Positions 12,906-41,068 of a DNA stretch of 64,000 nt are shown here, in pieces. How positions within the stretch are numbered: the first letter of the stretch is position 1; the number at the start of each line of letters is the position of its first letter. The notes below the pieces were generated by a model. It ran no database searches. It was not told the origin of the DNA and saw nothing but the letters and a program-made list of their open reading frames with translations. The DNA is from Phycisphaerae bacterium (GTDB taxonomy: Bacteria > Planctomycetota > Phycisphaerae > UBA1845 > Fen-1342). The position numbers were made by a program, and so were the translations under genes. The stretch is taken from assembly GCA_050115495.1 (NCBI GenBank), contig JASFQK010000020.1, forward strand, positions 1-64,000, in the 5' to 3' direction.

Positions 12906-14918
12906 CTACCCGCCTAACAGGCCCACGAAGACGCTGATGTCGAAGTTGTCGACGGCCCCGTCCACGTTGACGTCGGCGCACCAGTAGCAGCCGGCGGGGT
13001 ACAGGTCGACGAACTCCCCTTCCGTGTGCGTGACGGCGTAGACGAACGGGCTGATGTCGAAGTTGTCGACGGCGCCGTCGCCGTTGACGTCGCCGGGCAG
13101 CGTGTCCGGCACGCACTCCAGCGTCCACACCTGGAAGTCATCGACGAGGGCCTCGACCAGCGAGTTGTTCGGCGAATCGTCGACGGTAAAGCGCACGCGC
13201 ACCTGCGACGTGGGCGTGACGTAATCGCTGACGCGCCACGCGACGTACGTCCACTCCTCGCGGTTGTCGATCGTCTCCACGGTCGTCCAGCTCGCGCCAT
13301 CGTTGTTCGAGACGGCGACGATGAGCGCATCGTCCCATTGCGTGCTGATGTGGTACCAGCGCCAGTAGCTCACGGTGGCGTCGAGGCCGGCCAGGTCGAA
13401 GGCGGGCGAAGTCAGGTGCGTGGGGCCGCCGTCGAGATCGAAGTCGCCGACGGATGAGCCGGCCGCGGCCTGCGTCACGTAGCAGAGCGTACCCGCCGGC
13501 GTGTGGTCGTCCTCGGGCTGAACGACCTGCCCGTTGTTCGAGGTTACCTCCGGATCAGCCCACTCCCAGTTTCCGGTGTCGGCACCGGCAACGACGGTCC
13601 AGCCCTGATCGGTCTCGAACGTATCGTCGAAGAAGACGGTCTGGCCGGTGGCGACGAGGGCGCGGTAGGCGTCCGCCGGCGCCTGCGACGGATCGTAGAG
13701 CCGGCCGACGGTGGCCTCGGCGGCGCTGACGTACCAGGAGAACTCGGTGAAGCAGTCGGCGGCGGGCAGCGTGGCCTCGTAGAGACCGGCGCCCAGGGAG
13801 GCCATGGGCACGGTCACGTAGGCCGCACCGTTCTGACTGTAGTGCAGTTGACCGCTGTCGGGGACGGGTACGCCGTCATGCTCGCCGGCGACCTGGACGC
13901 GGAACGTCGTGGGCCGCTCGGGCGCGAGCCACTGCGGCCGGCCGTCCGGGTAGGAGAAGGTGAGGCCGGGTTGGGCGCCGGCGTACACGAGGTACAGGCC
14001 GTTGTAGCCGACGCGTGAGCAGTTGTACTCGATGCGCATGTAGCCGTCTTCGCCCCAGCCGGAGCCCCAGCTATTGCGCAGGAACCAAACGCCGTTGGCG
14101 CCCTGGCTGTCGTCCCAGCCGACGAGGACGACGGCATGGTTGATGTTCGTGTCCTCGCAGACGTTGAAGACGCCGCCCGTGTAGCCGTGGAAAGCGTCGT
14201 TGGCGTAGACGCAGACGGTGATGGGGCCGTGGTCGACGATGGCCTGCTTGAGCTGGGCGACGGTGGGGATGCCCCATTCCGGTCCGATGAACGCCCAGTC
14301 CTCAAGGCAGTACGGGTGCGTGTACGGGCAGCCGCAGGGCGCCTCCCAGGCGACGTAGGGGAACTCCTCCTCCAGAACGGCCCCGAAATCGCCGCATTGA
14401 TCTGTGTATTGGCCGGTGCACAAGCAGTAGTCGGCAGCGTTACCCGGCCACTCACCCCCGCAACCGCCGAGGTCGAGGCAGCTCACGAGCCACTGCTCGG
14501 ACAGGTCGACGACCTCGTTGTCGGCCAGCACGATCGCTGACTCGAAGGCCCCGTGGAGGGCGAAGGCCCAGCAACTGCCGCAGCCGCCCTGGTGCTTGAT
14601 CGGCGTGCAGGCACCCTGGGTCCGCCAGTCGAAGCTGGGCGGCAGTCCGCCGCGCGGCGGGCTGTTGTCGAAGCGGGCCCCTTCGCGCCAGTTGGCGGGC
14701 ACAACCACACCGCAGAGTTGTTCGAGCGGATAGGGCGTGGCGGAGTTCTCGCCGACGGTGAAAGTCCAGCCCTCCTGCTGGCCGTGGGACTGCAAGGCGA
14801 TGAGGTCCTCGCGGGAGAGCTGGGCGAAAGCCGCGCCCGCTCCGAGCAGGATCGTGAGCAGCAGCGCCAGCCAGGTCGGCGTGCGCCGATGAGAGCCCGG
14901 TGCGCTCGTCGTGTTCAT
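12906..14918 (-). CDS. Secreted papain-family (C1A) cysteine peptidase with beta-sandwich module and dockerin-like C-terminus
   Basis: Signal peptide; LPPSFDWR, HQGGCGSCWAF, LSEQWLVSC, NHAVVLVGW, RNSWG; two [14 protein letters not shown] repeats. Confidence 0.92.
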   Translation of the reverse strand: MNTTSAPGSHRRTPTWLALLLTILLGAGAAFAQLSREDLIALQSHGQQEGWTFTVGENSATPYPLEQLCGVVVPANWREGARFDNSPPRGGLPPSFDWRTQGACTPIKHQGGCGSCWAFALHGAFESAIVLADNEVVDLSEQWLVSCLDLGGCGGEWPGNAADYCLCTGQYTDQCGDFGAVLEEEFPYVAWEAPCGCPYTHPYCLEDWAFIGPEWGIPTVAQLKQAIVDHGPITVCVYANDAFHGYTGGVFNVCEDTNINHAVVLVGWDDSQGANGVWFLRNSWGSGWGEDGYMRIEYNCSRVGYNGLYLVYAGAQPGLTFSYPDGRPQWLAPERPTTFRVQVAGEHDGVPVPDSGQLHYSQNGAAYVTVPMASLGAGLYEATLPAADCFTEFSWYVSAAEATVGRLYDPSQAPADAYRALVATGQTVFFDDTFETDQGWTVVAGADTGNWEWADPEVTSNNGQVVQPEDDHTPAGTLCYVTQAAAGSSVGDFDLDGGPTHLTSPAFDLAGLDATVSYWRWYHISTQWDDALIVAVSNNDGASWTTVETIDNREEWTYVAWRVSDYVTPTSQVRVRFTVDDSPNNSLVEALVDDFQVWTLECVPDTLPGDVNGDGAVDNFDISPFVYAVTHTEGEFVDLYPAGCYWCADVNVDGAVDNFDISVFVGLLGG

Positions 14919-15052
14919 CCCCTTCTTCCTCCTTTCACGTTTGCGCTCGCCCTCCGGGGAAGACGAACGCGTCGCCAGAAAACGACGCGGCCGGCGACGG
15001 GCGGGGACGACCACGGTGGCCGCACCCGCCCGCCCCGGCCGGCACAAACGGA

Positions 15053-17464
15053 TCAGGGACTGGTCAGCAGGCCGACGAACGCGCCGATGTCGAAGTTGTT
15101 CAGCTCGCCGTCGCCATTGACGTCTCCATTCAGCAGGTTGCAGTCGGGGTACTGCTCGGCATAGCCCTCGGGGTTAGTCAGGGCCAGCACGAACGGGCTG
15201 ATGTCGAAGTTGTCGATGGTGCCGTCGCAGTTCAGGTCGCCCGGCGACGTGCCCTGGCCCTCCACGAAGTGGGCGTAGACAATCTTCGTGTTGGTCATGA
15301 CCAGCGTGCGCGGGTTGACCGAGCCGCTGAGCGACCCGCTCCAGTGATCGAACTCCCAGCCCTGGGCGGCGTCCGCCGTCAGCTCGACGGTCGTGCCCCA
15401 GGCGTACTCACCGCCCGGCGGATCCAGAATGACGGTGCCCTCGCCCTCGACGTACACCCAGAGCTCACACGTCGTCGGGGCAAAGTGGGCCGTGACCGTC
15501 TTGTCGCCGTCGATCACGATCGCGTCCGGGTCGTAGGTGCTGTTCAGGTCGCCGGTCCACTCCTCGAAGTGCCAGCCCAACTGCGCGGTGGCGTCCAGCC
15601 ACACGAGCGAGCCCTCGATATAGGTGCCGCCCGGCGGATCCAGCGCCACCGTGCCGCTGCCGTCGATGTCCACCGTGAGCGTGTAGTACTGCGGCGGCTG
15701 GCAGTAAGCCGTCGCGACGGAGAAGTCGTCGATCAGCGCCTCGACCAGCGAGTTGTTCGGCGAATCGTCGACGGTGAAGCGTACGCGCACCTGCGACGTG
15801 GGCGTGACGTAGTCGCTCACCTTCCACGAGACGTGCGTCCATTCCTGGCGGCTGCTGACCGACTCGACGGTCACCCAGGACGAACCGTTGTTGTTGGACA
15901 CGGCCACGACGAGCTCATCGTCCAACTGCGTGCCGATGTGATACCAGCGCCAGTAGCTGATGGTGGCGTCGGCGTCGGACAGATCGAACACGGGGGAGAT
16001 CAGGTGGCTCGGCCCGCCGTCGACGTCATAGGAGCCGGCGCCGGTGCCGGCCAGCGGCCCCGTTACATAGCAGAGCGTGCCCGTCTCACTGTGGTCGTCG
16101 CCGGGCTGAATGATCTGGCCGCTGGACGTCGTTTGCTGCGGGTCGGCCCGCTCCCAGTTGCCCGTATCCGCGCCGGCCTGGACCGTCCAGCCCTGGTTCG
16201 TCTCGAAGTCGTCCTCGAACACCGCCTCGTAGCTCGTGGCCACGACGGTGTCGTACGTCGTCGTCGGCGCGTCCGGCGGATCGTACACCATGCCGATCGT
16301 CTCCTCTTCGGCGCCGACGTACCAACGGATGTTGTCGTAGCACTCTCCGCCGGGCAGCGTGGCGTTGTACCAGTTGTCGACCATCTGGCTCATGGGCACG
16401 TTCGACCAAGCCCCGCCATTGATCGAGTAGTAGAGCCGCCCGGTCCCCGGCACCGGCGCGCCGAAAGGCGAGCTGACGATGACGCGGAACGTCTTTCCAG
16501 TGAGGGGGCACAGATCGGGCAGGCCCCACGGATAGCTGAAACGCAGCTCGGGCGGTGGAGGATTGCCGCCGGTGTAGATGACGTACGCCGGGTCAGAGCC
16601 AACGCCGTTGCAGCCGTAGGGTATGCGGCAATAGCCGCCGTTCTCGCCCCAGCCCGTGCTCCAGCTATTGCGCATGAACCAGACGCCGCCGGCCTGGTTG
16701 TCGTCCCAGCCCACGAGCACGACGGCGTGATCCAACGGACCGGTTTCGCAGTTGTTGAAGATGCCGCCGGAGTAGGCCTGGAGTGCATCCGAGGCGTGGA
16801 TGCCCACGGAGACGGGGCCGTAGTCCATGATGGCCTGCTTGATGCTGGAGATCCCACCGGAGATGTAAGCCCAATCGTCGATCGTGAAGTGGTGCACGTA
16901 GGGGCAGCCGCAGGCCTCGTCCGTGGCGGAGTACGGGAAGTCGGCCTCCCAGAGCCCACCAAAGCCGCCGCAGGTATCGGTCTTCCACTGGAAGTAGTCG
17001 AAGGCGTAGAAGCCGCCGCTGCAGTCCCAGCCGTCGCGGTTGCAGCTCACGAGCCACTGTTCCGATAAGTCAACGGTGATGCCGTCCCGAATCAGGATGT
17101 TGCACTCGAGGGGGCCCATCGTCGAAAAGGCCCAGCAACTGCCGCAGCCACCCTGGCTCTTCACCGGCGTGCAGAGGTTCTGGCCGTTGTAGTTGCGCCA
17201 GTCGAACGTCGACGGCAGGTCGCGCGTCGGCGGGCAGGGATCCCAGCGGGCGAGATCACGCCAGTTTTCCGGCGGCTGGAAGCCGCAAAGTTGCTCCAGC
17301 GGGTATTCCGTGACCGGATTCGGATCCACCGTAAACGTCCAACCCTCAGCCTCCCCTCTGGCCCGCAGCGCGTCCAGGTCAGCGTCCGTAAGCTGTGCCT
17401 GAGCCGCCACGCCAAGCGATAACACGAACACCGTGCCCATCACCACATCCATCCACCAGCGCAT
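15053..17464 (-). CDS. Secreted papain-family (C1A) cysteine peptidase with beta-sandwich module, two InlB-B-like repeats and dockerin-like C-terminus
   Basis: SQGGCGSCWAF, DHAVVLVGW, RNSW; two ~70 aa repeats (GTVxLDPPGGxY...GWxFxxWxG...AHF); [31 protein letters not shown]. Confidence 0.92.
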   Translation of the reverse strand: MRWWMDVVMGTVFVLSLGVAAQAQLTDADLDALRARGEAEGWTFTVDPNPVTEYPLEQLCGFQPPENWRDLARWDPCPPTRDLPSTFDWRNYNGQNLCTPVKSQGGCGSCWAFSTMGPLECNILIRDGITVDLSEQWLVSCNRDGWDCSGGFYAFDYFQWKTDTCGGFGGLWEADFPYSATDEACGCPYVHHFTIDDWAYISGGISSIKQAIMDYGPVSVGIHASDALQAYSGGIFNNCETGPLDHAVVLVGWDDNQAGGVWFMRNSWSTGWGENGGYCRIPYGCNGVGSDPAYVIYTGGNPPPPELRFSYPWGLPDLCPLTGKTFRVIVSSPFGAPVPGTGRLYYSINGGAWSNVPMSQMVDNWYNATLPGGECYDNIRWYVGAEEETIGMVYDPPDAPTTTYDTVVATSYEAVFEDDFETNQGWTVQAGADTGNWERADPQQTTSSGQIIQPGDDHSETGTLCYVTGPLAGTGAGSYDVDGGPSHLISPVFDLSDADATISYWRWYHIGTQLDDELVVAVSNNNGSSWVTVESVSSRQEWTHVSWKVSDYVTPTSQVRVRFTVDDSPNNSLVEALIDDFSVATAYCQPPQYYTLTVDIDGSGTVALDPPGGTYIEGSLVWLDATAQLGWHFEEWTGDLNSTYDPDAIVIDGDKTVTAHFAPTTCELWVYVEGEGTVILDPPGGEYAWGTTVELTADAAQGWEFDHWSGSLSGSVNPRTLVMTNTKIVYAHFVEGQGTSPGDLNCDGTIDNFDISPFVLALTNPEGYAEQYPDCNLLNGDVNGDGELNNFDIGAFVGLLTSP

Positions 17465-17614
17465 AATCATCTCCTGATTGTCCTGAACAGGCAGGAAGGG
17501 AGGGCCGCGACCAGCTTCACGGACCACCCCACAACATCACTTATACCAACTGGCCCCGGAGGTCGCCAGATCAATGTGCGTCCGGCGGCCCCGCGGACGC
17601 CGCGTCAGAAGCCG

Positions 17615-17650
17615 GCGGGGCGGCGGCGCCGGAATGTGCAGCCGCCCCGC
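17615..17650. repeat. Conserved intergenic GC stem-loop, copy 1 of 4
   Basis: GCGGGGCGGC...GCCGCCCCGC just past the stop of 17677-21381. Confidence 0.7.
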
Positions 17651-17676
17651 ACGGGTGATCCCTTCGTGCTGGCCGC

Positions 17677-20600
17677 TTACGGGCCGGACAGCAGGCTGAC
17701 GAAGGGACTGATGTCGAAGTTGTTCAGTTCACCGTCGCCGTTGATGTCGCCGTTCAGAATGTTGCAATCCGGGTAGGCGGCCGCGTATCCCGCCGGGTTC
17801 GTCAGGGCCAGGATAAATGGGCTGATGTCGAAGTTGTCGACAAGGCCGTCACAGTTCATGTCTCCCGGCAGGTACTGCAACTCGCACTCGAAAGCCACGA
17901 CAACGAAGTCGTCGATCGCGGCTTCGATCAGCGAGCCGTCGCCCTCGTCCGCGGCGACGAAGCGCAGTTGAACCTGCGCGGTCGGCGTGATGAGGTCGGC
18001 GACGTCGAACGTGTGCCGGTACCAGCCGCCGCCGGCCTCGGACCCGGTGGGGCCGACGACCTCGACGTTCACCCAACTGGCGCCGCCGTCGTTCGTGATG
18101 TCAACCGTGAACACGTCCGCGTTGGGGGAGGCCCCGGTATCGTTCGAGTACCACCGCCAATAGGTGACGGTGATGTCCGTGTAAGCCGCCAGATCCAGCA
18201 TGGGGCTCTTCAACGTGGTCTTGCCGCCGTCGACATCGTAGTCACCGAGGCTGCCGCCGCGGATGTCCGTGGCCCAGCAATTGACGCCCGGGGCGGGCGT
18301 GTGGTCGTCTTCCGGCTGGGCCTCGGTGCCGACGGGATCACCCCAACTCCAGACGCCGGTGGTGGCGTCGTCGCCGGTGTCGCCGACCGTCCAGCCGGTG
18401 GAGACCTCGCAGCCGTTATCCTGGATGGTGATGAGGTTGCCAACGGTTGCGTGGTAGACGGTGTCCGGCGCATCGCGCGGCAACACGGCCGTGCCGCCGC
18501 CGTCGCCCGACGCGCTGAAGTAGAACTCGGGCGTGGCGTCGCACAGGGCGGCCGGCAGGGTCGCGTGGTAGAGGTCGCCGCCGAGCGACGTGAACGGGAC
18601 GGTCTGCCAGGCGCCGTCGTCATAGCGGTAGTACAACATGCCGGTGCCGGGCTCGTACGTTTCGGCGCCGTCGAGGATCTGCACGGGGATCGGTGTCGGC
18701 TGGCCCGGATCGATGTAATCGGGCGCGCCGTCGGGCAGGAGCAGGTGCACGGCCGGCTCCTCGCCGCCGACGGCGATGATCTGCACATCGTCGATGTTCC
18801 AGCCGCAGTACCGCCAGCCGCTGTCGGTGGCGCCCATGGTCCAGCGGAGGTAGACGGTTGGCTGGTTGTCGGCGACGTCGGAGATGTCGATCGACATCTG
18901 CGTCCATTCGGTGTCGGTGATTTCCGCCGTGTTCCGCCAGACGTTCGTCCAGGTAGTGCCGTCGTTGCTCGCGCGGACGTAAGCGTGGTCACAGTTGGGC
19001 TGCTCGACCCCCAGCCAGCGCCAGAAATTCAGCGTCACGTGGCCGAGGCCGGTGCAGTCGATCGGCTCGCTGGTGAGGTGATACTCCGGAATGTAGTTGC
19101 CGTAGTCACCGCTCAGGTTGTAGCCGTACACGTTGTCGCCGGTATAACCGCTGGTCGGGTCGGGACCGCCATACTCGCCGCCACCGCCGGTCGGCTGTCC
19201 CCAGGCCCACTGGCCCTCAACGGTCCAGCCGGGATCGGTGTCCATCGTCCATTCGTAGACCAGCATGGGAACGCCGACGTAGAGGGTCACGCCGCGGGTG
19301 CGGTTGCCGACACCGTCGGTGAGGTTGATGAAGCTGATCGTGTCCTCAAAGCCGCCGTTGCCCAGGCTGTTCGCGTCGTCGTTGATCGACACCGTCACGG
19401 TCACTGAGGTGTGAGGCGCCAGGTAGCCGGAGGCGTTGGTTACGGTCACCCAGGGCTGGATGTGGGTCACTTCGTAGTCAACGCCGTAGTCACCGATGTT
19501 CTCGACGGTGTAGTCGATGCTGTCGGGCGTGAACGGCCCGCCGCGCGGCCCTTCGGCCACGAGTTCCGCCGGCGGGGTGACGACCAGGCCCGCCATCTCG
19601 TACAGGGGTATGGTCGGATCGCCGAACAGGGTGATCTCGTAGTAGCACCAACGCATGCAGTCTTCGTTGACGCGGTAGAGGTTGTCCTCCTTCGAGTCGC
19701 AGTTGGCCGGGCCCAATTGACACTTGAACTCGTCGCGGCTGAAGACGGCGTCCCAGAACTCGCGGTGGAAGCGCTGCGAGGGGCCGTCCGTGCTGTAGTT
19801 CGCACCCCAGCCATAGCGGGCATTCATGATCACGGCGAAGGCGCCGTAGTCCGTTCCGATGTGGATCGTCTCGGCCCAGCAGTCCGTGCCGTCGAAGTGC
19901 CCGGCCAGGCAGGTCTGTGAGTCGACGAAGCACAGGGCGGTGTTGTGCAGCATGCTGACAATGGTCAAGTTCGTCAGGTTCATCGCGGAATCCGGGCTGC
20001 CGTGGCCCAGGTGGTTGAGGAAGTGCACGCCGTTGTTGATCTTGTTGACGATGTCGACCGTGTCCCAGTCCCCATCCCGCTCGTACAGCTTGTCGATTTC
20101 GTATTCGCTGGAGGGGATGCCCACCGTCGTGTAGCCGTCGGCGCTCGAGCCGTCGATGAGCTGATCCATCATGTTTCCGCCCCAGTCGGCGACACCACCG
20201 AAGCCGAGGTACTCACCCACCATCAGCACCTTCTCCGGGTGCGGATGCTGGCCGCTGAGGTACCAGATCGTCTTCGTAACGAACCGGGCGGCCTCGGTTG
20301 GGGTACCTACGGAAGCACGGCCGACGTACACGTCGGCGATCAGCTTGATGCTACCGCCGCCCGGACCGTCGTTCGGCTCGCCCCAGTAGGCGTCACCGTC
20401 GTAGTTCCAGGTGCCGTCGAGGCAGGCGAAGTAGATATCTCCGGGCATCGCCGTCTCGATGTCGCCGCCCGGATAAGCCTGCACGTACAGGTCCTTGGCG
20501 GGGATGAAGTCGTCGTCGGCACCGATGATCACGAAGCCGATGCCGTCATTCGCGAAGCAGGTGGTGATGTAGCTGCGGATCGTGTCGGGGTCGGTGCCGC

Positions 20601-21381
20601 CGGCTTCCGTCGTCGTGTGGATCTCGGTCGGAACGCCGTGAGCGTTGTGGTAGTCGGCGAGCGGCTGAAACGAGGGCGCCAGGGTCGGCGTGGTCAGAAT
20701 GAGCAGCGAGTAGTTCTGCGAGCCGCGGATGCCCGTCGCGGCATAGGTCCGCGTCTGCTCCGGATTGTCCACCTTCGACAGGACCGCCGCCTCATCTCCC
20801 GGCAGGCCGCGGTACAGCGAGGGAACGCGACCCGTTTCCACCAGCGTGACCTGCACGGTCAGGTGCGGGGCGTAGTACAGCTCGCCGCTGGCCGGCAGGT
20901 ACCGCACGGGCCGGAGCTTCACAATCAGGATCTGGTAGCCGCGAAAAGCGTGGATGCCGATCCGCTTGCCACTGGCCGGCGGGAACGGCTCGTTCGAACC
21001 GTAAATCACCGGGTCGGGCACTGGCGGCAGCGCCTGGGCCACGTCCGGCCGGAGCGGGACGGGCCGCGCGCCCGGCTCGATCCGATAACCCTGCCCGACG
21101 AGGATCCATTCGTCGGCGATGACCTGGACGTCCGCCACTTCCGTGCCGCAGGGCAGCAGGATGCGGGCGCCGCTCGCCGGCAGCAGTGGCTGGCCAGCGT
21201 TGCCGCCGTTGGCGCAGCCGGGCATGATAACGCGGTCGTAAGCCTGATCCCCCACGGTGACCGACACGACACTCGGACGTTCGAAAGCGTAGTCCACCGT
21301 CAGCGGTTCCTGAGCCGCCGCAGTCATGGCCACGCTGAGCAGTAAGAGCAGTCCCATCCCGGTTCGATAACACCAGCGCAT
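17677..21381 (-). CDS. Secreted gingipain-like (C25) cysteine peptidase with propeptide, Ig-like and two beta-sandwich modules, dockerin-like C-terminus
   Basis: GQPLLP propeptide, [16 protein letters not shown], catalytic NHLGHGS and [30 protein letters not shown] tail. Confidence 0.9.
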
Positions 21382-21590
21382 GTCCGACCTCCTCGAGCGA
21401 AGAAGAAATGAAGTGCTCACACGCCGCCTGGGCAGCACCCACCGGGGCACTCCCCCGATCCAGTTTACAAAGGTCTTAATCTGTATTCCAGCCGCGTATT
21501 GTCCTGAATTGGTTGGCGCCGGCGGATATATCGGACTCAGGCGTGGATGTGCGTCCCCCGTCGGTCGGCTGGCGGCACGCCAGAAAGCGA

Positions 21591-21625
21591 GCGGGGCGGC
21601 TGCGCCTCAAGCGCCGCCGCCCCGC
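21591..21625. repeat. Conserved intergenic GC stem-loop, copy 2 of 4
   Basis: GCGGGGCGGCTGCGC-CTCAA-GCGCCGCCGCCCCGC. Confidence 0.7.
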
Positions 21626-21657
21626 GCGGGTGATCCCTTACTACTGGTGCTGGCCGC

Positions 21658-24519
21658 TTACGGGTTGGTCAGCACGGTCACGAAGGGACCGATATCGAAG
21701 TTGTTCAGCTCGCCGTCGCCGTTGATGTCGCCGTTCAGGATGTTGCAGTCCGGATAGGCTTCTGCATATCCCGTCGGGTTCGTCAGGGCCATGACGAACG
21801 GGCTGATGTCGAAGTTGTCGACGAGGCTGTCACAGTTCATGTCGCCGGCGACGTACTGTAGCTCGCACTCAACACCTATGATGAGGAGGTCATCGATCGC
21901 TGCCTCGACGAGCGAACCCTGTCCCTCGTCGGCGGCGATGAAGCGCAGTTGGACCTGCGCGGTCGGCGTGACGATGTCGGCCACGTTGAACGTGTGCTGA
22001 TACCAGCCGCCGCCGGTCCCGGTCCCCGAGGGGCCGACGACCTCGACGTTCACCCAACTGCCGCCGCCGTTGTTCGTGACGTCGACCGTGAACACGTCCG
22101 TGTTGGGCGTAGCCCCAGCGTCATTCGAATACCAGCGCCAGTAGCTGATGGCCGCATAATCCTGGCCCGACAGGTCGAGCACGGGGCTCTTGAGCGTGGT
22201 TTTGCCGCCGTCGACGTCGTAGGTGCCCAGGTCACCGCCGCGGATGTCCGTGGCCCAGCAGTTCACGCCGGGGGCGAGCGTGTGGTCGTCTTCCGGTTGC
22301 GCCCCGGTACCGACGGGGTTGCCCCAGCTCCAGATACCAACCGTGGCGTCGTCGCCGGTGTCACCGACCGTCCAGCCGGTGGACGCCTCGCAGTTGTCCT
22401 CGTGCAAGGTAACGAAGGCACCGACGGGCGCGCTGTAGACAACGGCAGGCGCATCCTTCGGCTCGACGATCGTGGTGCCTCCATCGCCCGTGGCGCTGAA
22501 GTAGTATTCTGGTTCCGCGTCGCACATGGCGGCCGGCAGGATCGCCTCGTAGAAGTTGCCGCTGACAAACGTCATCGGGGCAGTTTGCCAGGCACCACCG
22601 TCATAGCGGTAGTGGAGCAGGCCGGTACCGGGCTCATACACTTCGACGGCGTTCATGATCTCGACGGTGACGGGTGTCGCCTGGCCTGGCTCGAGGATGT
22701 CGGGCACGCCCTCGGGCAGGCGGAGGCACAGGGCCGGCTCTTCTAGGCCGATGTGGATGGTCGGATCACCGAAGAGGGTGATCTCGTAGTAACACCAACG
22801 CATGCAGCTTTCGTTGATGCGGTAGAGGTTGTCTTCTTTCGAATCGCGGCTGGCCGGGCCCAACTGACACTTGAGCTCGTCCACGCTGAAGACCGCGTCC
22901 CAGAACTCGCGGTGGAAGCGCTGCGAGGGGCCGTCCAGGCTATAGCTCGTACCCCAGCCGTAGCGGGCATTCATGATCACGGCGAAGGCGCCGTAGTCCG
23001 TCCCAATGTGGATAATCTCGGCCCAGCAGTCCGTGCCATCGAAGTGGCCGGCCAGGCAGGTCTGTGAGTCGACGAAGCACAGGGTAGTGTTCGTCAACTC
23101 CAAGAGCTGGTAGTCGTACAGATTCATCGCGTGATTCGGGCTGCCGTGGCCCATATGGTTGAGGAAGTGCACGCCGTTGTTGATCTTGTTGACGATGTCG
23201 CTCGTGCCCCAGTTCTGGTCCCGCTCGTACAGCTTGTCGATTTCGTAGTCGCTCGTCGGAATGCCCACCGTCGTGTAGCCGTCGGCACTCGAACCATCGA
23301 TGAGCTGGTCCATCATGTTTCCGCCGTAGTTGGCGATGCCACCGAAGCCAAGATACTCGCCCACCATCAGCACGCGCTCCGGGTGCGGATGCTGGCCGTT
23401 GAGGTACCACAACGTCTTCGTGACGAAGCGGGCAGCCTCGGTCGCATTGTCGACCGAAGCGCGACCGACGCACACCTCGGCCAGCAGGTCGACGTCGCCG
23501 CCACCCGGACCGTCGGTCGGCTCGCCCCAGCGGGCGTCGCCGTCATAGTTCCACGTGCCGTCGAGGCAGGCGAAGTAGATGTCGCCGGGCATCGCCGTCT
23601 CGGTCTCCCCGCCGCCGGTGACGTACAGGTCCTTGGCGGGAATGTCGTCGTCGTCGGCACCGATAATCACGTACTCAATGCCGTCGTTCATGTAACGGGT
23701 CGTGATGTAGCTGCGGATCGTGTCGGGGTCGGTGCCGCCCGCTTCCGTCGTCGTATGAATCTCGGTCGGAACGCCGTGGACGTTATGGTAGGTGGCCAGC
23801 GGCTCGAACGTCGTGGCCAGCGTCGGCGTGGTCAGAATGAGGAGCGAGTAGCTGCGCGAGCCGCGGATGCCCGTCGCGGCATAGGTCCGCGTCTGCTCCG
23901 GATTGTCGACCTTGGCCAACACCGCCGCCTCATCTTCCGGCAAGCCGCGGTACAGCGAGGACGCGCGACCCGTTTCCGCCAACGTAACCTGGACGGTCAG
24001 GTGCGGGGCGTAGTACAGCTCGCCATTGGCCGGCAGGTACTGCACCGGCTGGAGCTTCACGACCAGGATCTGATAACCACGGAAACCGTAGGTGCCGATC
24101 CGCTCACCACTGGCCGGTGGGAACGGCTCATTCGAGGCGTAGATCACCGGGTCGGGCACTGGCGGCGGCGCCTGGGACACGTCCGGCCGGAGCGGGACGG
24201 GCTGCGCGCCCGGCTCGATCTGATAGCCCTGCCCGACCAGGATCCACTCGTCGGCGATGACCTGGACGTCCGCCACTTCCGTGCCGCAAGGCAGCAGGAT
24301 GCGGGCGCCGCTCGCCGGGAGCAGTGGCTGGCCAGCGTTTCCGCCGTTGGCACAACCAGGCATGACGACGCGATCGTAAGTCTGATCCCCAACGGCGACC
24401 GGAACGACATTCGGACGATCGAAGGCGTAATCCACCGACAGCGGCTCCTGAGCCGCCACGGTCGTGGCCACGCCGGCCAATAAGAGAAGTCCCAAACCGA
24501 TTCGACAACACCAGCGCAT
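21658..24519 (-). CDS. Secreted gingipain-like (C25) cysteine peptidase with dockerin-like C-terminus
   Basis: GGAGG RBS, ATG at 24519; NHMGHGS, SQTCLAG, LFGDP; close paralog of 17677-21381. Confidence 0.9.
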   Translation of the reverse strand: MRWCCRIGLGLLLLAGVATTVAAQEPLSVDYAFDRPNVVPVAVGDQTYDRVVMPGCANGGNAGQPLLPASGARILLPCGTEVADVQVIADEWILVGQGYQIEPGAQPVPLRPDVSQAPPPVPDPVIYASNEPFPPASGERIGTYGFRGYQILVVKLQPVQYLPANGELYYAPHLTVQVTLAETGRASSLYRGLPEDEAAVLAKVDNPEQTRTYAATGIRGSRSYSLLILTTPTLATTFEPLATYHNVHGVPTEIHTTTEAGGTDPDTIRSYITTRYMNDGIEYVIIGADDDDIPAKDLYVTGGGETETAMPGDIYFACLDGTWNYDGDARWGEPTDGPGGGDVDLLAEVCVGRASVDNATEAARFVTKTLWYLNGQHPHPERVLMVGEYLGFGGIANYGGNMMDQLIDGSSADGYTTVGIPTSDYEIDKLYERDQNWGTSDIVNKINNGVHFLNHMGHGSPNHAMNLYDYQLLELTNTTLCFVDSQTCLAGHFDGTDCWAEIIHIGTDYGAFAVIMNARYGWGTSYSLDGPSQRFHREFWDAVFSVDELKCQLGPASRDSKEDNLYRINESCMRWCYYEITLFGDPTIHIGLEEPALCLRLPEGVPDILEPGQATPVTVEIMNAVEVYEPGTGLLHYRYDGGAWQTAPMTFVSGNFYEAILPAAMCDAEPEYYFSATGDGGTTIVEPKDAPAVVYSAPVGAFVTLHEDNCEASTGWTVGDTGDDATVGIWSWGNPVGTGAQPEDDHTLAPGVNCWATDIRGGDLGTYDVDGGKTTLKSPVLDLSGQDYAAISYWRWYSNDAGATPNTDVFTVDVTNNGGGSWVNVEVVGPSGTGTGGGWYQHTFNVADIVTPTAQVQLRFIAADEGQGSLVEAAIDDLLIIGVECELQYVAGDMNCDSLVDNFDISPFVMALTNPTGYAEAYPDCNILNGDINGDGELNNFDIGPFVTVLTNP

Positions 24520-24766
24520 GTTCAGCCTCCTGGACAACAGAAAACAGGCGGCAAACGCCGCCAAGACAGCACCCACCCGGGCACTCTCCGTATCGTGTTC
24601 AGTATACAGAGGTCTGAATTCACGATCCAGCGAAGCCCCGGTTTCGCCGCGGACGAGACGATCGTGTTGGTTAGTTGGTGCTCGCGCGAGCCGCGCGGGC
24701 ACGAGCGGCTCGTCGACATATCGGACTAAACGCACGTGGTCCCTCGAACCCGCCCCTCAAGCAACC

Positions 24767-24798
24767 GGGGCGGCCGCGCCGCAAGACGCCGCCGCCCC
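24767..24798. repeat. Conserved intergenic GC stem-loop, copy 3 of 4
   Basis: GGGGCGGCCGCG...CGCCGCCGCCCC. Confidence 0.7.
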
Positions 24799-24828
24799 TT
24801 CCTGCTTAGCGTGATGCGAACCTGACCG

Positions 24829-27663
24829 TTACGGCTCGGTCAGCAGATTCACGAACGGGCTGATGTCGAAGTTGTTCAGCTCGCCGTCGCCGTTGATGTC
24901 GCCGTTCAGGATGTCGCAATCCGGGTAGGCGGCCGCGTATCCCGTCGGGTTCGTCAGGGCCAGCACGAACGGACTGATGTCGAAGTTGTCCACCGTGCCG
25001 TCACAGTTCATGTCGCCGACGGGCCGCGGTTCCGGCTCCAGACCCCAGATGACCACGTCGTCGATGTTCCAGCCGGAGTAGGACCAGGCGGAGGCGCCGA
25101 CGCGGTAGCCCCAACGGATGTAGACGGCGGGCTGGTTGTCGGCCCAGGCCGAGATGTCGTAGGTCTGCGGCGACCAGGCTGTCTCTTCGATCTCGGTGGA
25201 ACCGTTCACCCAAAGCTCGACCCAGTCAGCGCCGTCGACGGAGAGTTCAACCGTGGCCTCTGCGTACGGCTGGTAGTCGATGTTGAGCCAGCGCTGGAAG
25301 CACACACTCGTCCTCGTCAGGTCGGACAGGTCGACGGGCCCCATGGTCAGGTAGTACGGGCCGCCGGGTGTCGTCGAGTAATCGCCCTGGAGATTGACGC
25401 CGTAGACGTTGGTACCCGTGGCGCCGGCGGTGGGATCGGGATTCCCATGGAGGCTGCCACCCTGGCCGGTCGGCTGGCCGAAGGCCCACTGGCCCTCAAC
25501 GGTCCAGCCGGGATCGGTGTCCAGCGTCCACACGTAGATCGGCCTGGGCACGCCCACGGTGAGCGTCACGCTGCGTGCGCAACTGCCGGTGTCGTCAGTG
25601 AGGTTGACGAAGTTGATCGTGTCCTCATGGGTACCGTGGCCGAGGCTGTTGGCCTGGGCGTTGATGGACACGGTGACCGTGATCGAGTCTTGCGGGGCGA
25701 GGTAGCCGGTCGTCTCGCTCACTGTCACCCAGGGCTGGCTGTGTGTCACTTCATAGTCGACACCGTAGTCACCGATGTTCTTGACGATGTAGTCGATGCT
25801 GTCAGGCGTAAACGGGCCGCCGCTCTGACCGGTCGCGGTTAGATTCGTCCTCGGGCTGACGCTGAGACCCGACATCTCGTTAAGCGCGATAGTCGGATCG
25901 CCGAAGAGCGTCAGTTCGTAGTAGCACCAACGCATGCAGTCTTCGTTGACGCGGTAGAGGTTGTCCTCCTTCGAATCGTGGTTGGCCGTGCCTAACCGGG
26001 CCTTGTTCTCGGCGGGGTCGAAGACAGCGTCCCAGAATTGGCGGTTGAAGCGCTGCGAGGGACCGTCCGTGCTGTTGTACTGGCCCCAGCCCTCCCGGGC
26101 ATTCATCACGACCGCAAAGGCACCGTGATCCGTCTTGATGTGGATCGTCTCCGCCCAGCAATCCAGCCCGTCGAAGTGCCCGGCCAGGCAGGTCTGCGAA
26201 TACACGAAGCAGAGGGTGGTGTTGGTCAAGTCGCTGAGAAGGTCGTCGCATTCCAGCTTCATGGCTTCCACCGGGCTGCCATGCCCCAGGTGGTTGAGGA
26301 GATGCACCCCGGCGTTGATCCGGGCGACCAGCTCCGACGGTGGCCAGTCGTACTCGGGGCTGTCGTAGAGGGTCTCCACGTCGTAGTCGCTCGTCGGGAT
26401 GCCTACTGTCGTGTAGCCGTCATCGCTCGAGCCGTCGATGAGCTGATTCAGTGTGGCGGTGGCGTATTGGGCCACGCCGCCGTGGCCGAGGTACTCACCC
26501 GCCATCAGCGCGCTATCCATGTTCGGATGCTGGCCGCTGAGGTACCACATCGTCTTGGTGACGAAACGGGTAGCCTCGGTCGTGTCGCCGACGGAAGCCC
26601 GACCTACGCACACGTCGGCGACCAGGTCGACGTCGCCGCCGCCGGGACCGTCGGTCGGCTCGCCCCAGTAGGAATCGCCGTCGTAGTTCCACGTGCCGTC
26701 AAGGCAGGCGAAGTAGATGTCGCCGGGCATATCCAACTCGGTCGGACCGGTCGAAGTGAGCCGCACGAACAAATCCTTGGCGGGGATGACGTCGTCATCG
26801 CCGCCAATGATCAGGTACTCGATGCCGTCGTTCATGTAGCAGGTGGTGATGTAGTCGCGAACGGTCTCCGGATCGCTGCCCCCCGCGTCGGTCGTCGTGT
26901 GGATCTCGGTCAGCGTGTCGTGGGCGTTGTGGTAGTCGGCCAGTGGCTGGAACGCGGCAGCCAGGTCCGGCGTGGTCAGAATGAGCAGCTCGTAGCTCCG
27001 CGAGCCACGGATGCCCATCGCGGTGTAGGTCCGCGCCTGGTCCGGATTGTCCACCTTCGACAGAACTGCCGCCTCATCTTCCGGCAGGCCGCGGTACAGC
27101 GAGGGCACGCGCCCCGTTTCCGCCAGCGTGACGTGCACGGTCAGGTGCGGGGCGTAGTACAGTTCGCCGCTGGCCGGCACGTACTGCACCGGCTGGAGCT
27201 TCACAACGAGAATCTGGTAACCGCGGAAGCCGTAGGTGCCAATCCGCTCGCCACTTGCCGGTGGGAACGGGTCGTTCGAGGCGTAGATCACCGGGTCGGG
27301 CACCGGCGGCGGCGCCTGGGATGCGTCCGACCGGAGCGACACAGGCTGCGCTCCCGGCTCGATCCGGTAACCCTGCCCGACGAGGATCCACTCGTCGGCG
27401 ATGACCTGGACGTCCGCCACTTCCGTGCCGCAGGGCAGCAGGATGCGGGCGCCGCTCGCCGGCAGCAGGGGCTGGCCGGCGTTGCCACTGTTGGCGCAGC
27501 CGGCCATGATGACGCGATCGTAAGCCTGATCCCCCACGGCAACCGGCACAACATCCGGACGATCAAAGGCGTAATCCACCGACAGCGGCTCCTGAGCCAC
27601 CACGGTTGTGGCCACGCCGACCAGTAAGAGCAGTCCCATCCCGGTTCGATAGAACCCGCGCAT
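24829..27663 (-). CDS. Secreted gingipain-like (C25) cysteine peptidase with Ig-like and beta-sandwich modules, dockerin-like C-terminus
   Basis: GGAGG RBS, ATG at 27663; [36 protein letters not shown] tail. Confidence 0.9.
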
Positions 27664-27838
27664 GATGTGATCCCTCCACATTAGCGGTTACCTGACGCAA
27701 AAATGATGGTCGCCTGGACACTCACCGAGCCTTGCACGCCCTCCGTTTCGGCGACACCCCGCGTCCGCGCGGGCGCGCCCCATTACCGTCACTCGCTCCA
27801 CGGTCCATGTCGACGCGTGGCTGTGTGCCACGCACAGA

Positions 27839-27872
27839 CGGGGCGGCCGCGCCAGAAAGCGCCGCCGCCCCG
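27839..27872. repeat. Conserved intergenic GC stem-loop, copy 4 of 4
   Basis: CGGGGCGGCCGCGC-CAGAAA-GCGCCGCCGCCCCG. Confidence 0.7.
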
Positions 27873-27903
27873 CCGCTACTTGACGCGACGCAAACCCAAC
27901 CGC

Positions 27904-30816
27904 TTAGGGCTGGGTCAGCAGGTTCACGAACGGACCGATGTCGAAGTTGTTCATTTCGCCGTCGCCGTTGGTGTCACCGTTCAGGATGTTGCAGTCCGGA
28001 TAGGCTTCTGCATACCCTGTCGGGTTCGTCAGGGCCAACACGAACGGACTGATGTCGAAGTTGTCCACCGTGCCGTCGCAGTTCATGTCGCCGGGCAGGT
28101 ACTGCAACTCGCACTCGAAGGCCACGGCCATGAGGTCGTCGACCGCCGCTTCGACGAGCGAGCCCTGTCCTTCGTCGGCGGCGATGAAGCGCAGTTGCAT
28201 CTGAGCAGTGGGGGCGACGATGTCGGCGACGTTGAACTCATGCAGATGCCAGCCGCCGCTGGTTCCGGACCCTGAGGGTCCGACGACCTCGACGTTCACC
28301 CAATTGCTGCCGCCGTTGTTCGAGATGTCGACGGTGAACACGTCCGCATTGGGCGAGGCCCCGGTGTTGTTCGAGTACCAACGCCAGTAGCTGAGGGTGA
28401 CGTCGTCGTAAGCCGACAGGTCGAGCACGGGGCTCTTCAGCGTGGTCTTACCACCATCGACGTCGTAGTCGCCGAGGCTGCCGCCGCGGATGTCCGTGGC
28501 CCAGCAGTTCACGCCCGGCGACGGAGAGTGGTCATCTTCCGGCTGGGCCTCGGTGCCCACCGGGTCGCCCCAGCTCCAGACGCCCGTGGTGGCGTCGTCG
28601 CCGGTGTCGCCGACTGTCCAGCCGCCGGCCACCTCGCACTGATCATCCATCATGGTGACGTACTCACCGACGAGGAGCGAGTACGTGCTGCCCGGGGCGC
28701 CGTACGGGCTGGTGACCGTCGTGCCGCCGTCGCCGAGGGCGCTGACGTAGTACTCGGGCGTAGCGCTGCAATTCGCCGGCGGCAGCACGGCCTCGTAGAG
28801 GTTGCCGCCGAGCGGGGTCAGGGCCGCCGTCTGGAACGCGGCGCCGGCATAGCGGTAGTGCAGCGTCGCGCTGCCGGGCACGTAGGCCTCGGTGCCGTTG
28901 GCGATCTGCACGTCGATCGTGGTCGGCACACCGGGCAGAGTGATGTCGGGGCGACCGTTGGGGAAAGCGATGCGCAGCTTCGCGGGGACGCCCAATTCGA
29001 GGTCGGGGTTGCCCCACAGCGCGCCCCACTCAAACATCTCGTACCGGGCGTAGTCCCACAGGCCCATGGTGTACATCTGCCGCAGGCCGTACTGGAGTGC
29101 GGCTCCCTGCGTATACTCACCCGAGGTCACGCAGGTCGTGAACATGTAGTCCAGCGACTGGCTCGAACCGTCGTACGCGCTGCTCCAACCCGGGCAACCG
29201 AGGGCCACCTTCGTCGCCCCGACGAAGCCGACGGCCCCGTGCTGAAGCATCGACTGCCCGATGTTCACTTCGTCCGTATCGGAGTTGCTGCACGCGTCGG
29301 CGAAGATGATCGCCGGATACTCGTCGCTCAGGCTCGGGCAGTCCGACGAGGAAATGAACGCCGGCGCACCGAGGCCGTAGATGTGGCACGAGGTCGGCGA
29401 GCCGTGGCCGGCCCAGTTGACGAAAGCGAAGTGGCCCGTCGGCCAGACGTTCATCACGTTGCTGTTGAGCAGCGGGTAATCGCAGTCGAAGGATGACCAG
29501 TAGTCGGTATTCTTCTCGTACATCCGCGTGACCGTCCAGTCCTCCATCCAGGGCTGGTCGATCTTCGCTTCCATCAGCCTGGCGTTATCCGTGTCCGCCC
29601 AGAAGTACGCCCCGAGCAGCAGGATGTTCTTTTTGTACGTCGGGTCGTCGTTCTGCTCGTAGGCGATCGACTTCGCGCAGATGGCCTGCACCGTCGCCGC
29701 ACTGTCCCACGGAATGCGGCCCACGTTCACTTCGGCGTAGAAGTCGATGGGGTCGGAGTTCTCGCCCCACTGATGATCACCGTCCGCGTCCCACGAGGCG
29801 CTGTCGGGCTGCGTCAACTCGGCGTAGTAGTAGTCGGTTTCGGGCTGGCCATAGCCAACGTTCTGCGCCGTGCGGCGCATCGGCACGGTGTCGTAGCCGC
29901 CGACCAGCAGGACGTCCTGGATGCCCCACTCCCCCGCCGGATACTTGTCACGCAGGAAGTTGCGCATCCGCTCGGCCAGGTCGTAGCCGGTGTAGTTCGA
30001 GTTGATCCAGGTGGTGGTGACCACCTCGACGGTGCGGCCCTTGGTCGTCTCCCAGTCGACCAGCGCCGCGACGGACGAGACCAGCGAGTCCGTCGTAATG
30101 ATGACGAAGTCGTGCAGCCCGCGACCGTCCACGGAGTCATGCCCGTACCAGCGCTGGGCGCGGTCGTGGTTGTAGACGATGTCCGCGGCGATCTGCTCGG
30201 TCGCCGGCAGGCTGTCCACCATGACCGGCTCCGGCTGCGCCTTCGCCTGGTACGTCACGGTGACGGTGATGTTCGGGTAGTACACGAGCTGGCCCGACAC
30301 CGGCCGATACGCAAACGGCGTGACCAGCACGTCGACCAGGTTGTACCGCCGATATCCGGCGGTCCGCTCGAACGCCACCGGGCTCGCCGGATAGACGTCG
30401 TCGCTGCCGTAGACCGCGTCGTGGTTCAGCGCGTAGCGAAGCTGCTCCTGTTCGTACAGGGCCGGGTCCTCGCCCGTGACGACGCGCGGCAGCGGCGCCG
30501 GAGCGATCTGGTAGGTCCCGTCCAGCAGAAGGCCTTCGCCGGCGTCGTACTCAATGCCGACGACTTCCGTCCCGGGCGGGATGGCGATGGCGAAGATGCG
30601 CGAGGGCAGGCGCGGCTGTCCCGGGATCAACCGGTTACCCAGGCCCTCAACGTATAGCTCCTGACCCTGGTCCGTCTGCACGACCTGGTAGTCGCCGACG
30701 GAGATGGTCACCCGTTCCTGTCCAACTCCCGGGGGCAGGAGCGCCTGTGCCGCACCGGGTGCAGCCAGGACCAGAGCAAGGAACAGAACGACTGTACAGC
30801 CCATCCAGCAGCGCAT
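27904..30816 (-). CDS. Secreted gingipain-like (C25) cysteine peptidase (divergent core) with dockerin-like C-terminus
   Basis: AAGGAG RBS, ATG at 30816; PGQPRLP propeptide, [32 protein letters not shown]. Confidence 0.88.
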
Positions 30817-39695: not shown

Positions 39696-40907
39696 ATGAA
39701 CACTCCGGCGCGATGTCTGCTGATGCTGCTGGCGGCGGGCGCCGCTGCCTGCGCCCATGCGACCGAACCGCTGAAGCCCGAGGACGTGACGCCGCAGCGG
39801 GCCGAGGCGTCGCTGCGGGCCGGCTTGCACTTCCTCCTCGAATCGCAGAACGCCGACGGCTCGTGGGGCGGGGCCTGGGACTCGCTGACGACGTGGAGCG
39901 GCTGGACGTGGAACAACCCGGAGTCGCACCGTTCGTGGCGGGTGGCAACGACGGGCCTGTGCGTGCTGGCGTTGCTCGATGCCGGTCAGGATGAGGCCGA
40001 GCTCGCCGCCGCCGACCGGGCCGTCACGTACCTCGTGGCCAACGCGGACGTGCGCCGCCCGAGCGAGTGGGACACGATGGATTGCTGGGCGCACATCTAT
40101 GGGATGCAGGGCCTGGCGGCTGCGTATGCCCATCCGCGTTATTCCGACCCAACCAGTCGCGAAGACATTCAGCGAGCCATCGAGGCGCAACTGAAGGGTC
40201 TGGCCCGCAGCGAGGCGTTGTGTGGCGGGTGGGGCTACCTCGAGTTCGCCGCCCCGCGCACGGCTCACCCGCAGTGGGCCACGAGCTTCACAACTGCCGC
40301 CGGTATCGTCGCCCTGCTCGACGCGCGACAGGAAGGCGTGGCGATCGATGAGGGCGTGCTGGGCCGGGCGGTTAAGGCCGTCCGTCGGTGTTACCTGCCG
40401 AACGGCGCGTATACGTACTCCGTGCGGACCGTCCCGAATCCGCGCAAGATCGGCTCGATCAACCGGGTGAACGGCTCGCTGTGCCGAATCCAGTGCTGCA
40501 ACCTGGCGCTGTTGATGGCCGGGGACGAGATCAGCGAGGAGCGTTTGCGCTGGGGGCTCGAAGTGTTCTTCCGCGAGCACCGCTTCCTGGATATTGCCCG
40601 GCTCAAGCCGGTCCCGCACGAGTCATACTACCAGAACTCGGGGTACTTCTACCTCTTCGGCCACTACTACGCCGCCCGGGTGATTGAGCAGCTTCCGCCC
40701 GAAGACCGCCTGCGCTTCTGGCCGATGCTGCAATACGAGGTCATGAAGATCCAGGGCGACGACGGTGCCATGTGGGACTACGACCATCACGCGTACGACA
40801 AGCCGTACGGGACGGCGTACAGCGTGCTGGTGCTGGCGCACAGCCTGCGCGACGAGAACAAGCTGCAAGGCCCGGTAACATCCACGCCCACCGCCCCGCC
40901 ACCCTGA
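39696..40907 (+). CDS. Secreted prenyltransferase/squalene-oxidase-repeat (alpha/alpha barrel) protein
   Basis: [41 protein letters not shown] (QxxDGxW repeats); GGAGG RBS. Confidence 0.75.
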
Positions 40908-41068
40908 CAAACGCCCTCGCGCGGCCGGCATGGACGCCGGGCGCGGTGGCGAAATCCACCTTCGGCCCCGACCGGCCACCTCGTATAATGGCTCCGTGGC
41001 GGCGCCCGCCGGGCGACATGGCTGCCACCGTGCGGTCGGCACACCCGGGGGCGGAAGGAGCGGATCGA

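Follow-up and report, generated by a model that had tools for sequence, protein, structure and literature searches.

Six Tandem Protease Genes with a Common C-Terminal Tail

The first 64,000 nucleotides of contig JASFQK010000020.1 (Phycisphaerae bacterium, Planctomycetota; assembly GCA_050115495.1), hereafter the window, contain six co-oriented protease genes on the minus strand, which occupy positions 12906–30816. In the order of transcription they are four C25 genes and two C1 genes, and each ends in a module of the same type, here called the tail. The subjects of this report are the tail, its distribution, and a family of PEP-CTERM proteins, family E, which is a candidate for its anchor. 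The genome carrying the window is designated G000, and the other G numbers indicate genomes of its relatives. G000 is 5.97 Mb in length, with 67% GC and 92% completeness. The array stretch was recovered in three wetland runs, one of which is possibly its source. The coordinates are shown in Table 1.

A first-pass annotation, made from the window sequence alone, had described this gene order, signal peptides, intact catalytic residues, and a common C-terminal module with two calcium (Ca) loops. All of these were found as described. Genes 1–4 match Peptidase_C25 at 142–172 bits and Propeptide_C25 at 38–42 bits, and genes 5 and 6 match C1 at 155–156 bits, all above the Pfam cut-offs. A basic-hydrophobic, signal-peptide-like N-terminal stretch is present in 6/6 genes, as judged by a heuristic. 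The GHG and xxC[LS] motifs are intact in all four C25 genes, and the QxxCGSCW, HAV, and NSW motifs, with the active-site Gln, Cys, His, and Asn of C1A, in both C1 genes. The tails are 52–85% identical to that of gene 1. Of the 14 C25 domains of G000, 12 were aligned; all 12 retain the His and Cys, which align with His211 and Cys244 of gingipain R. The profile search matched gingipain structure 1cvr (E-value 4e-50), whereas a single-sequence PDB search with gene 2 gave no match. The catalytic domain of gene 5 matches papain-family structures at an E-value of 1e-33.

The array appears to have arisen by tandem duplication with module exchange. The N-terminal parts of genes 2–4 are 60–69% identical to each other, and the catalytic domain of gene 1 is just ~25–27% identical to those of genes 2 and 4. 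A C-terminal cassette of 360–380 amino acids (aa) is common to genes 1, 3, and 4 at ~70% identity, and is found in the C1 genes at 36–42%. A single operon is not established, because the intergenic gaps are 134–306 bp long and a GC hairpin lies behind every gene. The arm motif of the hairpin behind gene 1 is also present 3' of genes 2–4, and behind no other of the 166 tail carriers of the genome. The scan for promoters and terminators in the array showed no excess over shuffled sequences (1 vs. 2.4 and 5 vs. 7.1).

A further tail gene of the window, the seventh, lies 10 kb away from the C25 array and encodes a peptidyl-arginine deiminase-like protein. The peptidyl-arginine deiminase of Porphyromonas gingivalis works together with Arg-gingipains. 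Elsewhere in G000, two C1A paralogs of genes 5 and 6 end not in the tail but in a Cys-containing hydrophobic-basic signal, which we take to be MYXO-CTERM-like.

Table 1. Positions of the array, its tails, and related loci of G000.
Feature	Position	Strand
Gene 1: signal peptide, Propeptide_C25, Peptidase_C25 (His471/Cys509), immunoglobulin-like and MAM-like modules, tail	27904..30816	-
Gene 2: signal peptide, Propeptide_C25, Peptidase_C25, BACON-like and MAM-like modules, tail	24829..27663	-
Gene 3: C25 protease; mosaic, N-terminal part as in genes 2/4, C-terminal cassette as in genes 1/4	21658..24519	-
Gene 4: C25 protease, two MAM/choice-of-anchor-J-like modules, tail	17677..21381	-
Gene 5: papain-family C1A protease, MAM-like module, two InlB B-like repeats, tail	15053..17464	-
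Gene 6: papain-family C1A protease, MAM-like module, variant tail that has two cysteines in the linker	12906..14918	-
Gene 1 tail: two Ca-loop/helix repeats, Asn-Phe at positions 10/11 of each; predicted dockerin fold	27907..28104	-
Gene 2 tail	24832..25029	-
Gene 3 tail	21661..21858	-
Gene 4 tail	17680..17877	-
Gene 5 tail	15056..15253	-
Gene 6 tail	12909..13109	-
GC-rich hairpin 3' of gene 1	27829..27903	-
Seventh carrier: Porphyromonas-type peptidyl-arginine deiminase domain and tail (43028-43225)	40772-43228	+
C1A paralogs of genes 5/6	G000:C3:197319-203547	
Two tandem family E genes	G000:C31:43279-44124 and 44486-45289	
E domain and tail fusion beside dnaK	L249:3421-4404 (G000:C18:117326-118309)	
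Six type A cohesin-fold PEP-CTERM proteins, missed by Pfam (L045-L050)	G000:C6:77512-78039, C2:142894-143427, C53:15040-15702, C5:153752-154297, C37:22949-23521, C8:47398-48135	
Adaptor genes, then type C cohesins	L008/L051 (G000:C38:14735-25750), L005 (C3:22965-26962)	
Three tail-bearing starch enzymes	L233 (G000:C33:17179-25680)	
Rhs/YD-type proteins with the module	G000:C34:74508-80081, C69:6368-12019, C8:118455-123443, C67, C74, C82	
Two tandem dockerin-array proteins	L010 (G000:C9:91018-94414)	
Glycine-rich solenoid-like family with dockerin	L011, L012; contig ends C20, C23, C36, C70	

The Tail Is a Predicted Dockerin Spread over the Genome

The tail consists of two tandem repeats of a Ca-loop and a helix, whose Asp, Asn, and Gly loop positions are 79–100% conserved across 159 copies. 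In 107 of 127 tails, there are one loop Cys and one linker Cys. The first-pass annotation called it a dockerin, and the predicted fold agrees with this. The AlphaFold model from a 42-sequence alignment has a predicted local distance difference test (pLDDT) score of 96.3, with helices at residues 15–26 and 53–64, and the Foldseek matches at ranks 1–10 are all dockerin chains (probability 0.96–1.0, template modeling score 0.63–0.72). The array tails do not reach the cut-off of the Pfam profile Dockerin_1. Those of genes 5 and 6 scored 17.1 and 18.9 bits against a cut-off of 22.9, and those of genes 1–4 showed no match at an E-value of 0.01. Four carriers outside the array pass the Dockerin_1 gathering score. 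The neighbors of the tail in the Atlas are from Planctomycetota.

The tail is not peculiar to the array. The module was found in 166 open reading frames (ORFs) of G000, at the C-terminus in 150, and 139 of the 166 are signal-peptide-like by the heuristic. Most clusters of carriers are single genes (101/128), and the six-gene array is the largest. In itself the array is ordinary, a tandem duplication in what is probably a genome-wide system of surface display. Copies of the module also occur at the N-terminus, in the interior of proteins, and in tandem, which would not be expected of a strictly C-terminal signal.

The carriers are varied. The domain scan covered 109 of them, 102 outside the window and 7 inside. 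Among the 102, 23 are peptidases (9 C25, 8 S8, 2 C1, 2 M14, 1 C10, and 1 M28), 3 are starch-type hydrolases, 13 are beta-helix proteins, and 41 have no family at E-values of 1e-7 or 1e-5. With the window included, peptidases account for 29/109. All 14 strong C25 matches of G000 carry the tail. By contrast, only 1 of 61 C25 ORFs in gene 1-related loci of other taxa has it, and many others, by inspection, end in different dockerin-like or sorting tails; the enzyme therefore seems to adopt the local tag of its host. The tail also swaps with membrane anchors, as 14 of 135 PEP-CTERM proteins of G000 share a region with a tail carrier.

Several carriers have unusual compositions. Three adjacent starch enzymes, two alpha-amylases and one GH57 protein, all bear the tail. 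In Rhs/YD-type proteins, the module is internal or N-terminal, ahead of a variable C-terminal part. Two tandem secreted proteins are built entirely of dockerin-like modules, five in one and six in the other, with thrombospondin type 3 repeats between them. A multi-copy family combines a glycine-rich solenoid-like body, a dockerin with Asn-Phe (NF) at positions 10 and 11, and a conserved helical C-terminal domain, and its near-identical copies break the assembly.

The Tail Carries a Genome-Specific Code

In cellulosomal dockerins, positions 10 and 11 set species specificity, and internal symmetry permits two binding modes. In G000, these positions of the tail are NF in 116/127 first repeats and 120/127 second repeats of the modules caught by the pattern. 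The corresponding residues differ in other genomes, when counted in the best 30 of 134–150 matches per genome: FG in 23/30 and 26/30 repeats in G019, GF in 21/23 and 23/23 in G021, and VG in 24/28 and 21/28 in G014. Position 14 is mostly N, D, and N in G019, G021, and G014, respectively. Within each genome the code is uniform and the same in the two halves, and it differs from one genome to another. In the two dockerin-array proteins described above, the code of the genome is present in the last module only.

That over 100 unrelated cargo proteins have the same code suggests a single partner in each genome, co-evolving with the tail. Recent copying of DNA was considered as the source of the uniformity and rejected, since codon use at the invariant residues is close to the genome average, although this is weak evidence given GC bias. 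Judging from its sequence, it is likely that the tail behaves as a receptor-binding module and docks on a shared anchor.

Family E Is a Candidate Anchor

G000 has ~135 PEP-CTERM proteins and one exosortase gene. Candidate receptors were screened among PEP-CTERM proteins, and the comparison of those recovered from G021 (28) and G019 (29) with those of G000 revealed family E. Its members have a signal peptide, a domain of 170–240 aa with an invariant Arg-Trp, and a PEP-CTERM end. The marks of an exosortase substrate are present, namely, the signal peptide, the end composed of PEP, a transmembrane segment, and basic residues, and an exosortase gene in the genome. New matches inspected from nine genomes have the identical build. 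There are 57 database homologs; 49 of them end in PEP-CTERM, and none is informatively named, one being labelled MYXO-CTERM domain-containing.

The distribution of E follows that of the tail. The first sample contained 41 genomes, 22 tail-rich and 19 tail-poor. Over three rounds of profile search, E was detected in 7, 10, and 18 genomes, always tail-rich, so that the final counts are 18/22 and 0/19. The second sample contained 63 genomes of the family of G000, with up to 98 candidates scored per genome, and it splits cleanly into 44 genomes with at least 32 tails and 19 with at most 4. E is present in 42/44 of the former and 0/19 of the latter. In a held-out set of 40 family genomes that contributed to neither the tail profile nor the E profile, the counts are 25/26 and 0/14.

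The presence or absence of E can be followed at one site. E adjoins ribF in nine genomes (G000, G004–G007, G009, G011, G015, and G023), while in tail-poor G018, G022, and G024, the next gene after ribF is the one located behind E in G007. In G016 and G017 this neighborhood stops close to a contig end, and G001–G003 are rearranged at this site.

E also changes between genomes as the tail code does. Among 20 sequences of E ending in PEP-CTERM (E-PEP) from 8 genomes, the median identity is 72% within genomes and 24% between them. Between G000 and its own genus, E-PEP is 26–36% identical, where RecA is 81–83% identical. In one RNA run, X3, mismatch-free contigs cover both E genes of G000 at a depth of 80–196 and extend into the upstream leaders; no contig covers ribF, and identical contigs on the array have a depth of 2–6. 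Contig depth in one sample is a poor measure of expression and is taken as a hint only, and the parts of the array without cover are uninformative.

Two further arrangements of E were observed. One is the fusion of an E domain with the tail beside dnaK, ~50% identical in G004–G006. This fusion is better conserved than the E-PEP genes and could serve to lengthen chains or to bind dockerins of another class. The other is in G021, where E has 17 copies; many of these lie, two or three together, in repeated modules that follow a secreted protein of 640–700 aa (L331–L333).

Cohesins of G000 Probably Serve Other Dockerins

The statement that the window contains no cohesin or scaffoldin is correct, and iterated profiles detected 16 cohesin-like ORFs elsewhere in G000. 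All 16 have a single such domain, and no multi-cohesin protein was found among them in this 92% complete genome. Three true or likely cohesin types were distinguished, which match one another at hhalign probabilities of only 46–84%.

The six type A proteins are composed of a signal peptide, a domain of cohesin fold (Foldseek E-value 9e-8), and PEP-CTERM. They immediately follow a gene with a dockerin of another type in 5/6 cases in G000, where its product is a large secreted protein, and at 16/27 loci of relatives; at 0 loci of either do they follow a gene with this tail. Type A and its neighbor thus form private dockerin–cohesin–exosortase pairs, also in relatives, which are a precedent within G000 for anchored docking. 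As the receptor of the tail, type A was rejected because of this pairing and because 11 of 24 family genomes, tail-rich G019 and G021 among them, gave no type A match.

The seven adaptors are composed of a cohesin, HYR-like repeats, and a three-loop dockerin; Pfam detects HYR in 5/7, and two are above the Pfam Cohesin cut-off. Adjoining them are the three type C cohesins, which end in PEP-CTERM, another (third) dockerin type, or this tail. One adaptor and one partner cohesin themselves bear the tail. A cohesin–dockerin pair of the kind formed by adaptors and type C could build up alternating chains. Adaptor and type C cohesins occur together but do not follow the tail, and were rejected as its general receptor. 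No adaptor cohesin was detected in tail-rich G005, G009, G010, G012, G014, G015, G019, G020, and G021, but tail-poor G016–G018 have them. Furthermore, G010, G015, G019, G020, and G021, which have 32–150 tails, gave no match to any of the three types and no Pfam cohesin above the cut-off.

Tail-poor genomes (e.g., G016, G022, G048, and G058) have 72–251 first-look dockerin-like candidates but at most 4 of this tail. Other dockerin classes may be expanded there, with their own receptors.

Proposed Function and Alternatives

From these sequence patterns, we consider it probable that secreted tail proteins dock one-to-one on E, which would be abundant and anchored by exosortase, and so form a mixed coat on the cell. 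The proteins would be exported through the signal peptide motif seen in them. The tail, in its predicted fold, would hold two Ca ions and probably a disulfide. Either half of it would bind the receptor through positions 10, 11, and 14, as the analogy with cellulosomal dockerins suggests. The exosortase of the genome would attach E to the cell surface. An abundant monovalent E would give a coat of proteases, amylases, and putative adhesins, with no scaffolded complex. The C1A and C25 proteases of the array would, as their families suggest, release peptides at the cell surface. A more specific form of this proposal is offered tentatively: E would be a non-cohesin dockerin receptor in a dense exosortase-anchored coat, tail and receptor would co-evolve as a species-specific lock and key, and ~150 proteins would be displayed without a scaffold or a type IX secretion system (T9SS) in a diderm, which would capture enzymes from its own kind only.

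Several observations weigh against docking on E. The Foldseek E-values of the tail are 0.089 or worse, the domain being short, and the codes of relatives were read from the 30 best-scoring loci of each genome. E matches no Pfam family and has no relative in PDB, its hhalign probability with all three cohesin types is below 3%, and in the Atlas it reaches a cohesin cluster at only 0.80, the chance level; its alternating strand pattern is cohesin-like by eye only. E was not found in tail-rich G003 and G073, nor, in the first sample, in G002, G025, and G035, of which G025 and G035 belong to another family and have 36 and 22 tails. The E profile was built solely from tail-rich genomes, and the family diverges fast. 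The tail-poor genomes represent 11 genera whose members are kin and not independent, so that the pattern may reflect few events. In the RecA tree of 40 genomes (partial G037 left out), G016 with G024, G017 with G018, and G022 are placed among the tail-rich genomes, with weak deep support.

The tail could instead be mainly an export, sorting, or stability signal read in transit, an address comparable to the C-terminal domain (CTD) of T9SS substrates. E would then be an abundant surface protein or an export accessory, gained and lost with the tail but not holding cargo. The predominantly C-terminal position, the presence of the tail on every strong C25 match, and the failure of E to match a cohesin profile are consistent with this, and a genome-specific code would fit one translocon partner as well. 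However, the module is also N-terminal, lies within Rhs proteins, and is repeated five or six times in arrays, and the same code in both halves fits two equal binding faces. C25 enzymes were rejected as PorU-like sortases for the tail, as their PorU scores are weak (27–67 vs. 420) and C25 was not found in tail-rich G010, G014, G015, and G021. Such a signal is unlikely on balance. It is less likely again that the tail binds a non-PEP-CTERM receptor, a cell-surface polymer, or other tails, with shared ancestry as the source of the match with E. The screen took in PEP-CTERM proteins, not lipoproteins or outer-membrane barrels, and the tails of G025 and G035 have no detected E to bind. On the other hand, the match between the tail and E holds in the 40 held-out genomes and at the ribF site, and E mirrors the tail code, the same within and changed between genomes, which ancestry alone does not predict.

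The first-pass annotation proposed that the enzymes assemble on a shared scaffold or anchor into a cellulosome-like proteolytic complex. Docking on a shared anchor is likely, as described above, while the protease-specific complex is not supported. Assembly on a multi-cohesin scaffoldin or on cohesin–HYR–dockerin adaptors of the planctosome type would agree with the seven adaptor-like proteins, which match the adaptor in Figure 5 of PMC6461901, with the tail on one adaptor and one partner cohesin, and with the completeness of G000, as a repetitive scaffoldin could be unassembled. Nevertheless, the cohesin-like ORFs are all single-domain, the adaptor cohesins do not track the tail, five tail-rich genomes have no detected cohesin, and the tail is on ~150 varied proteins, with peptidases the minority of those scanned. 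This makes such a complex very improbable, and one-to-one docking on E remains the preferred explanation.

Comparison with Known Systems

The tail shares with clostridial type I dockerins (PF00404/PF00963; PDB 4fl4, 2vn6, and 6kge) the duplicated Ca-loop and helix, the predicted fold, the internal symmetry, and the genome-specific residues at positions 10/11. It differs from them in its scores below the Pfam cut-off, its conserved cysteines, and its longer linker. Like cellulosomes, G000 has many dockerin-bearing secreted enzymes; unlike in clostridial cellulosomes, the host is a diderm, the cargo is not cellulases, and the candidate partner E has no cohesin match. The system would work like cohesin–dockerin surface display and is not a cellulosome, because no multi-cohesin scaffoldin was found. 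NCBIfam NF041540, the GC-type dockerin domain-anchored protein, likewise has an expanded C-terminal dockerin-like module, but the tails score 11.5–11.8 bits on it against a cut-off of 29. As in PEP-CTERM/exosortase anchoring (TIGR02595 and PF09721), E and two cohesin types end in PEP-CTERM.

The array C25 proteins resemble gingipains RgpB and Kgp (1cvr and 4tkx) in the propeptide, the His/Cys dyad, and the immunoglobulin-like and MAM/adhesin-like modules. As the first-pass annotation stated, the dockerin-fold tail stands where gingipains carry the T9SS CTD, and no CTD match was found in the array proteins with Pfam and NCBIfam. A search for SprA in G000 gave no match, and the controls of that search were equally unmatched. 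By analogy, the tail probably takes over the anchoring role that the CTD has for gingipains.

The concept is not wholly new, as had been suspected. PMC6461901 (Andrei et al. 2019) proposes, as a hypothesis from domain lists, a planctosome in Nemodlikiaceae, with a hypothetical 2,210-aa lamin-tail/P-domain/cohesin anchor and with M12B and M14 peptidases on an adaptor. The likeness to G000 is in the planctomycete host, the dockerin-bearing peptidases, and the cohesin–HYR–dockerin adaptors. In G000, however, the occurrence of the adaptors does not match that of the main tail, the candidate anchors are small PEP-CTERM proteins, and the cargo amounts to ~150 proteins. The pairing of peptidase tails with the adaptor cohesin was not borne out, as judged by co-occurrence only. 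No lamin-tail or P-domain was found in the scanned cohesin ORFs, and no search was aimed at lamin-tail. The match with the planctosome is confined to the adaptor side-module. Gingipain-like C25 with a C-terminal dockerin is also in print for Ca. Stygibacter (Cloacimonadota), together with a 3,755-aa scaffoldin with tandem cohesins (PMC8542988); such a scaffoldin was not found here.

Implications

The genome-specific code and the candidate anchor E are new as far as the literature searched, which included few subscription papers, reaches. No publication joining PEP-CTERM, cohesin, and dockerin was found in this mostly open-access literature. Supplementary Figures 13–14 of PMC6461901, on domain co-occurrence, may bear on the novelty.

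Why planctomycetes and other non-cellulosomal microbes have dockerin-like tails but no detectable cohesin is a standing puzzle. The present analysis names a concrete, small, and expressible candidate partner and a predicted specificity code. If the proposal is true, two known systems, dockerin docking and exosortase anchoring, would be linked, and natural orthogonal tag–receptor pairs would be on offer. It would also explain how uncultured planctomycetes of wetlands and sediments retain their degradative enzymes.

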